Positions 3,472 through 48,179 of a DNA stretch of 64,000 bases are shown here, one piece after another. The stretch comes from Isurus oxyrinchus (lineage: Eukaryota): positions 103,044,001 through 103,108,000 of the forward strand of contig JANJGN010000015.1 of NCBI GenBank assembly GCA_026770705.1, written 5' to 3'. Position 1 is the stretch's first letter; each line of letters begins with the position of its first letter. Position numbers and translations under genes: made by a program. The notes below the pieces were generated by a model, which worked only from the letters and a program-made list of their open reading frames with translations, had not been told where the DNA came from and ran no database searches.

Positions 3472-5730
3472 ATAAAAACGGAAAACACTGGAAAAACTCA
3501 GCAGGTCTGGTAGCATCTTCAGAGGGAGAAACAGAGTTAATGTTTCGAGTCCAATATGACTCTTCTTCGGAACTGGAGATAGGTAGAAATATTATGGGGT
3601 TTTTGCTGTTCAAAAAGGGGGGAGGATCAGGTGGAACAATGGGGAAGGTCAGGAATGGGTTAGACGGCATTAAGTAAAGATGTCTTGGAACGAAGATACA
3701 GACTGGCACTTGGCAAAAACAAAATTCAAAATGGTGGACAGAGATCATGCTCTAAAGTTGCTCAATGTTGCGTCCAGAAGGCTGTAGAGTGCCTAATTGG
3801 AAGATGAGGTGCTGTTCCTCCAGTTTATGTTGGGTTTCACTGGAACATTGTAGCAGGCTGAGGACAGAAATGTGAGCATGAGAGCAAGATGGTGAATTGA
3901 AATAGCAAGCAAAGAAAGGTCGGGGTCACGCTTGCACACTGAGTGGAGGTGTTGACTGCATTGTGAGCAGCAAATACAGTAGACTAAATTGAAAGTAGTA
4001 CAAGTAAATTGCAGTTTTGCCTGGAAGGAGCATGTGGGGCCTTGGACAACGAGAGGAGAGGAGGTAAAAGGGGCAGGCGTTACACCTCCTGCAGTTACAA
4101 GGGAAGGTGCCTTGGGAAGGGTTGAGGGTGATAGAAGAGTGGACCAGAGGGTCACGGAGGGAATGGTCCTTTTGGAGTGCTGACAGGGATGGGGAAGATA
4201 TGTTTGGTGGTGGCATCATGCTGGAGATGGTAGAAATGGTGGAGGACGATCACATAGACTACACAGAAACTAGGAGCAGGGGTAGGCCATTCGGCCCTTC
4301 AAGCCTGCTTCGCCATTCAATATGATCACGGCTGATTCTCTATCTCAACGCCATATTCCCACTTTCGTTCCATACCTCTTGCTGCCCCTAACATCCAAAA
4401 ATTTATCAATTTCTTTCCTGAATATACTCAGTGACCCGACAGCCTTCTGTAGTAAAGAATTCCACAGGTTGACCACCTTCGGAGTGAGGAAATCTTTCCT
4501 CATCTCAGTCCTAAATGGTCTGCCCCGTATCCTGAGACTGTGGCCCTTTGAATCCTTTGATTCCTGTGGATCCTTTGAATATGAAGACTGGTGGGGTGGA
4601 AAATGAGGACAAGGGGACCCTATTGTAGTTCTGAGAGGGAGGGGATGCAGTGAGGGCAGAAGTGTGGGAAATGGGTCGAGCATAGTTGAGGGCACTATCA
4701 ACCACAGTGGGGTGAGGGGGGGATGATCAGTTGAGGAAAAAGGAAGATATGTTGGAAGCGCCATTTTGGAAGGTAGCATCATCAGAACAGATGCGATGGA
4801 GGCGGAGAAACTAAGAGAACAGAATGGAGTCCTTAACAGGAAGCAGGGTGTGAGCAAGTGTAGTCAAGATAGCTGTGGGAGTTGGTGAGCTTGTAATGAA
4901 TCTTTGCAGACAGTCTATCCCCAGAAATGGAGAGAGAGAGAAGGGAAGGGAAGGGTTAGAGATATACCATGTGAAAGTGAGAGAAAAGTAGAAACTGGAA
5001 ACAAAATTGACTGATTTTACCAGTTCCGACGAAAGCAGGGAACAGCATCGGTATAGTCATCTGTGTACCGGAAGAATTGTGGGAGGGGGGCTTGGGTAGG
5101 GCTGGAACAAGAAATGTTCTACGTACCCCAAAAAAGGACAGGCATAACTAGGGCTCATTCGGGCACCCATAGCGACATCTTTTATTTGGAGGAATTGAGA
5201 CAAGTTATACGAGAAATTGTTCAATGAGGGAAGTTAAGCCAGGCGGAGGAAGATGGTGGTGGATGGGGACTGTTCAGGCCTCCATTAAGGAGGAAGCAGA
5301 AAACTTTCAGACCATCCTGGGGTTGGTGGGGGGTTGGTGTGGAGGTGTAGAGGGATAGGACTTCAATAGTGAAGAGGAGGCGGTCAGGGCTAGGAAACTG
5401 GGAATTGTTGAAATGACGTAGAGCATCAGAAGAATCACGAATGTAGGTGGAAAGAGACTGGTCAAGGGGAGAAAAAAATAGAGTCGAGGCAGGGAGAGAT
5501 AAGATCAGCAAGGCAGGAATAGGCTGAAATAATGGTCCACCAGGACAGTCCTGTCTGTGGATTTTGGGAAGGAGGTAGAAGCGGGTTGTTCGGGGTTGGG
5601 AGACTTTAAGGTGGGAAGCTGTTGAAGGAAGGTCTCCAGAGGAAATCAGGAACATGACAGTCTTGATGGCTTGATGTTTAGTGGTGAGGTCATGGTCCAG
5701 GGCGAGGTAGGAAGGTGTGTCTGAGAGTTG
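3472..5730 (-). mobile_element. Penelope-like retroelement (RT + GIY-YIG), 5'-truncated and degenerate, with 13-bp TSD
   Basis: RT remnants FYLLPKIH...YIRDSSDAL...LLFT..V.SLYTS (5221-5730). GIY-YIG region QGP..SFQ.K..FTCT.FNLVYCI.CSQC (~3930-4100). pLTR at ~3472-3600. Perfect direct repeat gtggtcattagta at 3459-3471 and 5731-5743. Confidence 0.9.
4251..4548 (-). mobile_element. CR1 (HER1-like) LINE 3' fragment nested inside the Penelope-like element
   Basis: GHSLRIRGRPFRTEMRKDFLT.KVVNLWNSL.QKAV is the typical CR1 ORF2 C-terminus, followed by a CR1 3' UTR. It interrupts the PLE at gatc. Confidence 0.85.
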
Positions 5731-6448
5731 GTGGTCATTAGTATTTGGTAGAATCCATTTTGTGTGAAACAAGGATAAAATAGTCTCTTCAAAAACTCGG
5801 CTGCCCATATGGTTTCCATACCAAGTCCGACTCCGCCCATCAGCCAACCCTCGCTCACCTACATTGGTTCCTGGATCACAAGCATCTTCAGTTCAAAATT
5901 CTCACCCTTTGTGGTTAAATCCCTTCACGGTCCCAACTGTTCTTTTTTACCCTTTGAGATCCTATTAACAAATTAGGCTGCTTGAGAAATCCTTAACAAT
6001 GCCCTGGAATATTGCTGACTTGCCTAGCTCAGGTATCTGGAGTCTGCCAGAGTTGACTGAGTTTCGTTCTTCCATCGTCAAGCACATCATCTCGACCCTG
6101 GTAATCACTTTTACCCACCCCCAGGGAGGAGTCACTAGGTGGTTATTAATTAGATAATTGGACTGAAGACAAACACAAAATAAACAACAAATGTAGATTA
6201 TTCACCATGAGAGAAAAGAGATGAAACACAAATCACAAAAGCTGCGCAATGAGGTAATATTCTACACAAAGCCTTATGCTGCAAAAATTCTGAAAGGTAA
6301 TCAAGACGAAGGATAACCAGAATATGGATAATGGGTGCCTTAAAAAAAATGTTCAGCTTTAAATCATTTACACTTCCAAGTCGAGGGGTTCCTAAAAGGG
6401 ATGAAATCTTGTCACCTCAATAATGACCAACCCAAGCAGTGTACATAC

Positions 6449-44434: not shown

Positions 44435-44908
44435 CTGTCACTGCTGGTACTACTGCTGCTGCTGACTGAATCACTGCTTGATGACCTACTCCGGGACCCA
44501 CTGCCACTGGGTGAACGCCGTGACCTTGATGCTTGACTAGATCGTTGTGGGGACTGGTTTCCTGACCGTGAGGAATGTGGGGATCGACTCCTGCTGTGCT
44601 GATAATTTTTTTCCTGTCGTCTCCCTCTTACTTCCCGAGTAATGTCTTCCCTGTAGAGGTCTCGGTGCACTACACTTGATATTGCAAACTGTTCCCTCCC
44701 TCTTTGTTCATAACGTGGATCATGAGCTTCAAATCGAGTTGGACTTCGACTTCTTGACCCATAATAAACTCCATGTTGTATAGTTCGATCTCGAGGATCT
44801 CTATAGTAATCCTGTTCATAATGTCTGGGGCGATCAAACCCTGCCGCTGTACGATCGTGGTGTCCATAGGCACTGTGATCATAAGTACGCTCCCTGTTAT
44901 CAGAAGCC
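44435..44908 (-). CDS. SPEN: SPEN exon 3 (474 nt): Arg/Ser/Asp-rich linker
   Basis: ASDNRERTYDHSAYGHHDR...SRSRSPHSS...SSSDSVSSSSSTSSD. Acceptor acacag|GGCTTC; donor GACAG|gtaggt; in frame with exon 2. Confidence 0.96.
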
Positions 44909-46241
44909 CTGTGTTTTGTTTGGGGATGGGGAGGAGGAGGAAAAAATAAGAATCTGTCAAGCATCAGCAAAATAGCAAAAAGTCCCCCAAATTGCCCCTT
45001 CTAAGCTCAGGGAAAACAAGCATTTGAATTTTAACTAGAGAGTATATAGAAACAATAGAGAAATTAGCAATAGCAAGGTATTCCGTAACTAAAATAGTTG
45101 GCATCAGGTTTCTCATTATTTAACTTTTTGAATTAGACATCAGTACAGCTTATGTTTTCCAATTCCCAGGCACCGACAGACAAGTCAAATTAATGTTTAT
45201 ATTATACTTAAGAGTTTTTGATATTTTCACATTAAGAATTCTCCCACTATCTCTTTCCTTGGCTCCATCAATTATTTTAAATTACAGAACTAATCATTTA
45301 AAAACTATACAGGAAGTCCTTAGATTTTCAAATATTGTGCTATACACCAAATCAATCCATAAGGGCGCTGACCATCAAACCTCAAACTACAAAGAACAAC
45401 ATTTTGTAGCCAGTGTTTAACCAGAAAACTCATGATTGGAAGAAAGCAAGAATTAAGCAGCAGCAGTTGTGCTGGTTATCTGTACCAGATGATGGCAATT
45501 CATTTTTTGAATATTAAAATTGGCTGAACCTCTGTAACCACTTTGACAAGGAGACAATCAGGCAGCAGTTGCTGAAAGGTGAACCTCTTATGTCCAAACC
45601 TCCAAGGAAAGTCCCCAGTGCAGAACACTGAAGGTTGCACCAAAAATTAAGTTACATTGTTGGTTGCTTCCTGTGGGCTTATGAGGTCCAAAAGGCTAAA
45701 AAGCTAGCCTGATTCACTATTCACATTTGTTCAAGAAAAGTCCTTCCTTTAAAAAAAATTAACTGCTTTCTTCCAATTTCCATCCTTTACAGTTAAATAT
45801 TTACTTCCTGATTTCCAAATGAAGTGATGCTTCATTAATTTTATTTAGCTAGTTATATTTCCTAATTATCAGGCATTAAAGATATGGAAAATATTGTTAT
45901 AGAGCCTGATTCAACATGGGTTGATTAATTGTTAAATATTTTATCTCCATAACAATGTAAAGAAATGTGGTTATTTTAATTTCGGATTTTATATCATTCT
46001 ACCCTGTGCTCTTATTAAATTATTTCATTTTCATTCTGGCTATTTTTGTCCCAACCCATTCTACATTTCTCCCACACAAGCTGTTAAAACATTATTACAT
46101 TTTTTTGTTAACATTCTACAGATTCAGGAAACACTGAGCAGCAAAGCACTAAACTATGCATAATGTCAACTTGACTTAATTTTTTAAGCTACAGTTACAG
46201 AACTGAGCTTACAACATACTGTGGAATCATTTTACACTGAC

Positions 46242-46292
46242 CTTTCAGCAATCAGAAGAAGCAAGCTGATTCCAAAGCGTTACTGCCATCAG
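46242..46292 (-). other. Candidate 51-nt stop-containing cassette (poison) exon in SPEN intron 2
   Basis: Acceptor tttgtattttttgtatgtcag|CTGATG; donor AAG|gtcagt. Joined to exon 2 it reads GG|C TGA, an immediate stop. Confidence 0.5.
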
Positions 46293-46491
46293 CTGACATA
46301 CAAAAAATACAAACTCCTAATTCATGAAAGACACAGACAGGCAGAGGAGCTAATAGAGCTGTAAGTCAGTGAGATTCTATTGGCTAAAGTGCTGTTTGAA
46401 TTTCTAGCAGTGCTACTGACTACTGAAGTTAGTGGAAAGGAAGGGTTGACTGGGTTAGGAGAGGGGCTAAGATATACATGGCAGGACATAC

Positions 46492-46537
46492 CAACCTTTT
46501 TAGACTGCAGTAAACACGACCTAAATCCCAATTAAAT
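46492..46537 (-). other. Candidate 46-nt frameshifting cassette (poison) exon in SPEN intron 2
   Basis: Acceptor tttgtacacttttctctccctag|ATTT; donor TTG|gtatgt. Inclusion gives ...AGG TTG|GGC TTC TGA, a stop 3 codons into exon 3. Confidence 0.6.
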
Positions 46538-47858
46538 CTAGGGAGAGAAAAGTGTACAAACATTCCCAATTTGGTCCCCTCTTAAAGGGGTAATCCAACT
46601 TCGGATAGTGCTAGTGCCGCATTGATTTGGGGATTGTATCAAGAAAACTGAACGCCCAAGATAGATAAACTTCCATTGCCAGTGTTAAGTGCATTCGCCT
46701 GAAAACAGATAGCTCCCAAAGTTAAAAAGTAACTCCCAAACCCCAAGACCTTTCTGAGATGGCGAAGTGCGTTCAATTTGATGCGTGTCGGTAGATAGAC
46801 GTATCCCAATTCTTGAGTCGATATTAAGCAACTACACCCGTTACTCCTAGGGCACAGTGCTTTCTTCTAGTAGAAGGCATTTATTATCCATTTTCTAGCA
46901 GTCAGTAGCCATTCAATTCTTATGAAATCTTTTCACATTTGATCTGAAAATTAAAATGTAACGTATCCACTAACAATTTTCCCTTGTTTGATAGTCCATT
47001 GGTACAATAAGGTAGAATCAAGAAGTATGTCAAACACAAACCAGGTAATCCATTCTGCCATACAACTACTTAAAGGTGCATATAATCCCGTGTTGAAGAG
47101 AAAGTGACCTCTATTCCATTATACGGGGAAAATGGCATTCCAAATGTTTAAAAGTTTCTAATATTTTATCTTTAGCCCATAAATATCCATAAGATCCAAT
47201 CAGGGAGAAACAAAATAAACAGTACAGATTTGTAGACCCATGACAACTGTATCTGTTACGTCCTCATTCTTCAGTTTTCCTTGCATGTATTCCTGTTGAA
47301 AATCATTGGCTGTAATATCCTTCCAGGAAATAGTAGATCAAAAGAGTACTCTATCTTCATAGAAATATTTCATATCCAAAGAATGTGCATCAATATTTTA
47401 TGTTTAAACCAAAGCCAAATATAATTGTGCAGACAGTCTTCAATGCACTTCAGTATTGCCTCAAAAAGTAGGTCTGGTAATCCCATAGTATTCCTCAGGT
47501 TAGTTGCACCAGACAGTAATATTATAGCCACTCGATCGAAGGGATACATCCAGAGGGAACTGCTTGCAATCCAGGGAGAAAAGGGAAGCTTATTACGAGG
47601 GTTAACTCCATATTAACTGACAGAAACCTTCCATCAAACTAACCAAACTTATCCCAGGAGTAGTCATCCAGCCAGCTGCAGGATAGATCCACTGCGAATA
47701 GGCCAGAGCTGCTACTGGATTCAATTCTCTTCCATATCCAACAACGGTACGAATGTACAGATTTCCTCAATAAATCCATCTGGGGAACCTATACATGAGT
47801 TGCTGCTTCTCACCACACTATTTATCAAAACCCTGCCTAGAGAAACCTTGGAACTTAC

Positions 47859-48179
47859 CCATCAAGTCTCCGTTCATAACGTCCTTCCCGTCCATGTAGT
47901 GATGGTGGTGGTCCATATGTTGGCCCCCCACCACCTCCCCTGAACCCTGAAACCTCTCTAGTACGAGTTCCTATAGGAACGGTATCATCTAATCCCCGAG
48001 CAGCACTCGGAATAGTGCCAGGCTCATTGTAATCCGTTCGCAGATCCCTGTCTCCCATTTTGTTGACAGAATTGTGCGCTTTCTGCGCACTCTTGATGTC
48101 CACAAAATCCACAAAGGCTGCCACTCCACCTTCTGAGCCCCTTTTGGGAAGAATTTTGACACTTTCCACACGGCCATAT
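47859..48179 (-). CDS. SPEN: SPEN exon 2 (321 nt): C-terminal part of RRM1 and Gly-rich linker
   Basis: Translates (R)YGRVESVKILPKRGSEGGVAAFVDFVDIKSAQKAHNSVNKMGDRDLRTDYNEPG...ERRLDG, recognisable vertebrate SPEN. Acceptor ttttctttcag|ATATGG; donor GATGG|gtaagt; phase 2 to phase 2. Confidence 0.97.

Follow-up and report, generated by a model that had tools for sequence, protein, structure and literature searches.

Intron 2 of SPEN carries a deeply conserved unproductive-splicing element with a probable competing distal 5′ splice site

The minus strand of the window (the whole 64,000-nt stretch of DNA analysed here) encodes SPEN, and both the gene and the element described below in its second intron are present as single copies across the 4.98-Gb genome. 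The genome is a vertebrate one and, to go by its layout, presumably that of a cartilaginous fish. Outside the window are exon 1, about 3.5 kb beyond it, and a SPOC-domain exon, about 17.5 kb before it; further exons for the RRMs are found near 10050-957 of the window. Intron 3 (from 44435 to approximately 10050) spans about 34 kb and is far longer than intron 2 (2,950 nt), the first half of which is of similar length across the loci compared. The features to which the text refers are listed here (L002, L003 and L004 are further SPEN loci, and P0276 and P0232 are deposited protein sequences, all described below).

47859..48179, minus strand: SPEN exon 2, 321 nt, encoding most of RRM1; 94% identity to the 135-aa SPEN entry UniRef F6WRY4
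47853..47858, minus strand: proximal (productive) exon 2 donor; read-through gives Gly-stop, and L002, L003 and L004 are alike
47625..47858, minus strand: conserved 5′ block of intron 2, within a 586-nt blastn match to L003 (79%, exon 2 included)
46538..47858, minus strand: extension with a dispersed array of 13 sense-strand TGGAT (UGGAU) copies
46576..46590, minus strand: small hairpin directly after the last TGGAT, a prediction only
46538..46551, minus strand: conserved acceptor-like site, a pyrimidine run with TAG; over positions −12 to +3 it matches L003 at 15/15 and L002 at 13/15
46496..46537, minus strand: core of 42 nt (43 nt in L002), bounded by the acceptor-like site and the distal donor
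46494..46495, minus strand: distal 5′ splice site GT (AAG/GTTGGT), 1,363 nt after exon 2, used in P0276 and P0232
46490..46491, minus strand: donor GT proposed in an earlier note (TTG/GTATGT), in tandem with the distal donor and conserved
46270..46489, minus strand: conserved intronic block downstream of the donors, found by blastn
44435..44908, minus strand: SPEN exon 3, found by tblastn

Reading past the exon 2 donor ends translation at once: the TAA at 47857-47855 (intron positions +2 to +4) closes the read-through frame at 135 aa, and this stop is identical in 4/4 loci.

To compare the intron between species, metagenomes were scanned with an exon 2 alignment. Four loci were obtained, three of which bear vertebrate SPEN exon 2 together with intron 2; the fourth, L005, showed no blastn match to the region and was dropped. 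L003 is amniote-like, its closest named protein being an archosaur entry, and L002 and L004 are two teleost duplicates, paralogues of one assembly. L004 ends 1,354 nt into the intron, before the element, and served for motif counts only. The conserved 5′ block of intron 2 does not align to the teleost loci past about 30 nt. Between the window and L003 the extension can be aligned only over its initial 230 nt and its final ~250 nt, and between the window and the fish loci almost none of it does. The element itself aligned as follows: blastn with 46602-46270 gave 79% identity to L003 (E=3e-72), and the match to L002 spans 46546-46452. The 99-nt element block is the only strong intronic blastn match in L002 (E=2e-16), two other short matches having E=0.007.

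The 42-nt core keeps 34/42 positions in L003 and 32/42 in L002, and the donor region (−5 to +30) keeps 32/35 in each. A 12-nt block across the acceptor-like site and a 21-nt block across the donors, which includes the GT at 46491, are invariant in 3/3 loci reaching the site, and the AG and both GTs are kept in all three. The distance from exon 2 to the distal donor is 1,363 nt in the window, 1,301 nt in L003 and 1,818 nt in L002. The predicted hairpin, which lies 5′ of the acceptor-like site, is also found in L003 (L003:7526-7541) and is absent from L002. Rfam covariance models gave 0 matches at E<=1 over 44900-47900, and a search of viral contigs with the element pattern likewise gave 0 matches.

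The look of the splice sites lies within chance: by crude matrices, the 34-kb intron 3 contains 11 AG..GT pairs that score just as well (0.32 per kb). We count the element as real because of its conservation, and not because of its splice-site look alone. The peptide encoded by the core is not conserved; the loci differ by internal indels, and an in-frame stop interrupts it in L002. Of 62 read-through ORFs found in other genomes, 14 stop earlier and 48 reach the core, where 41 are unspliced, 6 end inside the core and 1 is spliced. As judged from the sequences compared, constraint acts on the RNA signals and not on coding.

The earlier note had proposed a 46-nt frameshifting poison exon here, and its reading of the letters stands. 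A 12-nt pyrimidine run ending in TAG lies before the segment (minus strand, 46537-46492) and GTATGT comes after it. The segment keeps the exon 2 frame open and then shifts exon 3 to Gly-Phe-stop, reaching the TGA, so that inclusion would give a 152-aa frame with its stop about 465 nt before the exon 3 end. The loss of AG or GT in related species, which the note held would speak against the exon, was not found: both dinucleotides are kept, and the AG-to-GT length is 46, 46 and 47 nt in the window, L003 and L002, in no case a multiple of three. What the note overlooked is the upstream GT at 46495, 4 nt from the one at 46491. A cassette ending at the 46495 donor would have 42 nt and be in frame in the window and L003, and is therefore not a frameshifting poison exon. 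Accordingly, a premature stop more than 50 nt before the junction is present in the window with the 46491 donor (152 aa) and is missing with the 46495 donor, where the frame stays open.

The choice between the two GTs can be read from deposited proteins. P0276 (‘SPEN isoform 5, partial [Pan troglodytes]’) bears 80 intron-encoded residues before the acceptor-like site, and P0232 (UniParc UPI0003D11AA1), from another species, bears 113; the acceptor-like site is thus read through in both. P0232 is identical to P0276 at 94/100 positions, and the two share one join: they read TWKR and then ASDNRE, in frame with exon 3. The 46491 donor would add Leu and shift the frame; the missing Leu therefore shows that the upstream GT (46495) was used. 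These are the only spliced sequences found (2/2), and both use this GT and retain the upstream intron. Neither shows continuity back to exon 2, because P0276 is 5′-partial and P0232 is a fragment. The 46495 donor also pairs better with U1, forming 8 Watson-Crick pairs and 1 wobble (−8.4 kcal/mol) against 6 Watson-Crick pairs and 1 wobble for 46491 (−5.3 kcal/mol); the value for the exon 2 donor is −10.3 kcal/mol. Our crude 9-nt matrix slightly favours 46491 (2.45 vs 1.93).

A donor-like AAG/GTCAGT at 46241, with the second-highest donor score, lies 254 nt past the distal donor and just outside the block common to the window and L003. The exon 3 acceptor (44930-44909) has an A-rich interruption just 5′ of its AG and does not appear within the top 15 acceptor scores of the region by our crude matrix.

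We further inspected 210 SPEN N-terminal proteins, comprising 91 short SPEN matches and the listed members of 10 clusters (at most 15 per cluster). None of them continues from exon 2 into the segment; the protein searches were limited to 2,000 aa, a range that leaves full-length SPEN outside, so that an annotated 14-aa insert could be missed. One SPEN entry for Boreoeutheria, F6WRY4 (135 aa), ends at the exon 2 read-through stop. In all, 169/210 proteins end there, but these are mostly unspliced read-through and were not taken as evidence. We rejected the tamarin model P0131, in which exon 2 is followed by an insert that finds no match in intron 2; P0215-P0217, which made up 3/7 phmmer matches to the element frame, are unrelated repeats and were dropped.

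Further evidence comes from mouse. In its accessible portions, the report of Wei et al. 2021 (PMC8327914) describes an alternative 5′ splice site in mouse Spen intron 2 that depends on m6A: the intron is m6A-marked and bound by RBM15, and use of the alternative site falls on METTL3 loss. The cluster clu_1930 of the same source, which we take to be Spen intron 2, consists of two introns that end at one position and start at donors separated by 1,213 nt, and its distal donor accounts for 0.34 of the junctions, dropping to 0.17 after METTL3 loss (p=0.002, adjusted p=0.156). The cluster as given there lists no junction into an internal acceptor, although the use of nascent RNA and cluster pruning could hide one, and the accessible text of the paper has 0 matches to NMD. 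The same gene, the same intron and a distal donor about 1.2-1.4 kb after exon 2 that is spliced, or in the window predicted to be spliced, to exon 3 are common to the mouse event and the window, and the element of the window is very likely its orthologue, as matched by position only. Conservation beyond mouse, the donor sequence, the acceptor-like site and a motif array are features of the present account that the accessible parts of the mouse report (PMC8327914) do not give.

Taken together, the results show a real, deeply conserved unproductive-splicing element, for which the donor and the isoform type proposed earlier need correction. In the reading that we prefer, at a probability of roughly 0.65, the conserved distal 5′ splice site (GT 46495) competes with the exon 2 donor; its use would extend exon 2 by 1,363 nt and bring in a stop directly after codon 135, and the resulting RNA would be expected to undergo decay or remain nuclear. 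In other species the distal donor is joined to the normal exon 3 acceptor with the upstream intron kept (P0276, P0232 and the mouse cluster). In the window, the premature stop would lie about 1,360 nt before the distal junction. In the present species, use of the proximal donor would yield full-length SPEN and use of the distal donor a stop-containing RNA. An unproductive, RRM1-only SPEN transcript, as the earlier note had it, is still the most likely outcome; what changes is the isoform, as the spliced sequences use 46495 and keep the upstream intron, and the likely stop, which moves from the exon 3 TGA to the TAA at intron +2 to +4. Lying 42 nt upstream, the acceptor-like site probably helps to define the distal donor, by exon definition or as a decoy, while usually staying unspliced. 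A comparable arrangement is found in Ythdc1 intron 11, where likewise a distal 5′ splice site in a gene for an RNA-binding regulator is self-limiting; its minor form takes 20-30% of splicing and lowers output, according to the accessible portions of PMC8327914. For Ythdc1 the feedback via m6A has been shown, whereas for SPEN we infer it.

The conserved AG and pyrimidine run exceed what a competing distal donor needs by itself, and this counts against our preferred reading. One alternative overlaps with the preferred reading and differs by making the acceptor essential: the AG and the upstream GT may define a decoy or slowly spliced cassette of 42 nt (43 nt in teleosts) that interacts with the splice sites on either side and holds back removal of the upstream intron, its full inclusion being rare and, in the window and amniotes, in frame. 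Conservation of the acceptor-like site equals that of the donor, no acceptor candidate within intron 2 outscores it in our own matrix, and the intron is longer than 1 kb. A late-spliced upstream intron, moreover, could escape nascent-RNA data. Precedent is given by SF3B1, whose intron 4 decoy exons (Parra et al. 2018, PMC6097662, as far as its accessible parts go) resemble the SPEN element in being a conserved cryptic exon with both splice signals, in an intron of >1 kb, that is rarely or never included; such U2AF-bound, rarely spliced cassettes promote SF3B1 intron retention. The difference is that SF3B1 decoys block removal of the whole intron, whereas the SPEN donor is productively spliced to exon 3. 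Against a decoy stand the mouse cluster, with no exon 2-to-acceptor junction, and the protein set, with inclusion in 0/210 entries (full-length SPEN, at >2,000 aa, lying outside the searches). Nor was SPEN found in the supplements of the decoy paper itself (PMC6097662, except file 5). We consider it unlikely that a decoy cassette is the main explanation.

SR and other RNA-binding-protein genes carry conserved poison cassette exons, and the SPEN element shares with them a deeply conserved non-coding intronic block, splice signals, a premature stop and a likely role in autoregulation. It differs in that those exons are included as cassettes, whereas the SPEN acceptor is read through and the block, at ~80% identity, is not ultraconserved. 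The original proposal is that the 46-nt cassette (TAG, TTG/GTATGT donor) shifts the frame of exon 3 and acts as the main NMD switch. In its favour, the AG and the 46491 GT are invariant and their spacing is in no locus a multiple of three, as described above, the bases past this GT are conserved beyond the need of U1 pairing to 46495, the same spacing into the 46491 donor recurs in 41 of the 48 read-through ORFs that reach the core, and an unstable RNA would be under-represented in databases. However, the two spliced sequences join exon 3 from the other GT with the upstream intron still in place, U1 pairing is weaker at 46491, the mouse table lists no exon 2-to-internal-acceptor junction, and the product occurs in 0/210 proteins. 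In the supplements searched of five papers on NMD or poison exons (PMC11188260, except file 13, PMC11632617, PMC7347940, PMC6547761 and PMC13187750), SPEN was not found. The 46-base poison exon is probably not the main product, and as the principal switch it is improbable.

A promoter inside intron 2, with the conserved block closing an alternative first exon of a SPEN that lacks RRM1, seems highly improbable: P0276 does start with an intron 2 Met and runs on in frame to exon 3, and junction tables cannot separate a first exon from an extended one, but P0276 is labelled partial, two stops interrupt this frame in the window in the ~50 codons that precede the core, the one nearby Met of the window is absent from L003, six amniote-type ORFs end in the core, and the TGGAT array extends back to exon 2. 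Least probable of all is a conserved DNA element such as an enhancer, or a chance splice-site pair, with no splicing role, a reading favoured by the frequency of equally good pairs in intron 3 and by the conservation continuing ~200 nt past the donor in L003, and contradicted by the peak of conservation at the splice signals, the joining of the spliced sequences at this site and the strand-specific excess of TGGAT.

The extension between the two donors of our preferred reading has a composition of its own. GGAT repeats were first noticed by eye, and all 4- and 5-mers were then tested against 300 dinucleotide shuffles. The extension contains 13 copies of TGGAT in the window, 14 in L003, 13 in L002 and 14 in L004, against an expectation of 3.0-3.4 (3.1 for the window), and 0/300 shuffles reached this in each case; L002 and L004 come from one assembly, and the counts are not fully independent. 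TGGAT is the top 5-mer in three loci and the fourth in L002, after purine-repeat words, and is the best common 5-mer. Elsewhere the motif is scarcer: ~1.5 kb 3′ of the donors contain 1, 2 and 0 copies (window, L003 and L002), and the rest of the window has a median of 2 and a maximum of 6 per 1,321 nt on either strand. The excess is also strand-biased, with GGAT 18 times vs 5 for ATCC in the window. The copies are dispersed 5-mers with little common flank, and most of them are not positionally conserved, because the extension is mostly unalignable. A multivalent short motif in the sense RNA is nevertheless present in 4/4 loci. Canonical m6A (DRACH) motifs show no such enrichment in two of the loci: the window has 17 over 1,367 nt of extension against 28 over the 1,500 nt that follow, and L003 has 13 against 32. 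Only L002 carries more in its extension (41 against 31).

From its sequence, the TGGAT array is a candidate self-binding platform. Proteins bound to UGGAU (SR proteins, the m6A machinery or SPEN itself) may push splicing to the distal donor, and, with the mouse data in mind, the choice of this donor would close a negative feedback loop on the SPEN level. In mouse, as far as the accessible parts of PMC7282817 go (echoed in PMC10274648), the RNA bound by Spen RRM2-4 includes Spen's own, across exon 2, and the knockout has elevated Spen mRNA. In the accessible portions of PMC10274648 and bioRxiv 10.1101/2025.05.21.655143, SPEN self-repression is described as transcriptional, and in those of Carter et al. 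(PMC7282817) the Spen-bound RNAs have neither homology to Repeat A nor a long motif. Because of this transcriptional framing and the missing long motif, we offer the link between array, SPEN and donor choice as a hypothesis.

Xist Repeat A provides a further parallel. Its GC-rich core is, like the array, a multivalent short-motif RNA, which recruits SPEN via SR proteins, and its GG16-17 and U19 matter for silencing (bioRxiv 10.1101/2025.05.21.655143, accessible portion). The units of Repeat A are longer, tandemly repeated and carry an AWCG motif, whereas the SPEN array consists of 13-14 dispersed 5-mers. The spacing of GG16-17 and U19 would match GGAU if the letter between them is A. We tentatively raise a wider idea, which is doubtful as it stands: the UGGAU extension (1.3-1.8 kb) might be an ancient self-silencing RNA module, kept since the teleost-amniote split by motif count and not by alignment, that would assemble SR proteins, the m6A machinery and SPEN on nascent SPEN RNA and flip splicing to the dead-end donor. 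It would then be a SPEN-recruiting element older than Xist, whose logic was later reused by Repeat A. A literature search on UGGAU surfaced only a plant m6A-reader paper.

Xist silences chiefly through its partner SPEN, which also represses its own gene, and the accessible parts of the SPEN papers cited here leave the RNA element behind this self-repression undefined. The present analysis names an exact donor, kept across bony vertebrates, and offers a countable motif array. Should the dead-end donor capture about one third of transcripts, as in mouse ES cells, SPEN output would rise once this donor is blocked, a point of relevance to human SPEN haploinsufficiency. The earlier report of the splicing event in mouse limits the surprise; the literature searched, with most subscription papers outside its scope, yielded no paper on a SPEN intron 2 poison exon, on its conservation, on the tandem donor with its acceptor-like partner or on the UGGAU array.

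Several minor observations concern the same intron. Complementary hexamers, GGCAGG (47837-47832, starting at intron +22 to +25) and CCTGCC (46485-46480, directly past the donors), are each kept in 3/3 loci; their pairing could bring the two donors together, with only 6 bp and no covariation. A long-range duplex between the two donors was set aside, as it had been computed without shuffled controls and differed among the loci.

The teleost element sits in an atypical fish duplicate: no SPEN exon 3 was found within 4.6 kb downstream in L002. Its exon 2 is 98% identical to a 135-aa Fundulus model, and fish 135-aa models were not counted as support, as they may derive from this duplicate. Same-strand exon-like pieces with UIM-like motifs lie at L002:3730-3810, 4257-4490 and 5677-5745 (Pfam UIM_2, E=0.38 and 0.00055, both below the cut-off), and we take them to be ANKRD13-like. 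L002 is possibly a truncated or fused spen copy that retains the intron 2 regulatory module.

Within the extension of the window there is an AATAAA at 46885-46880 (intron +974). L003 has ATTAAA at +824 and +1007, L004 has three poly(A) hexamers and L002 none before the element. Judging by these hexamers, which are not positionally conserved, intronic polyadenylation in the extension is possible.
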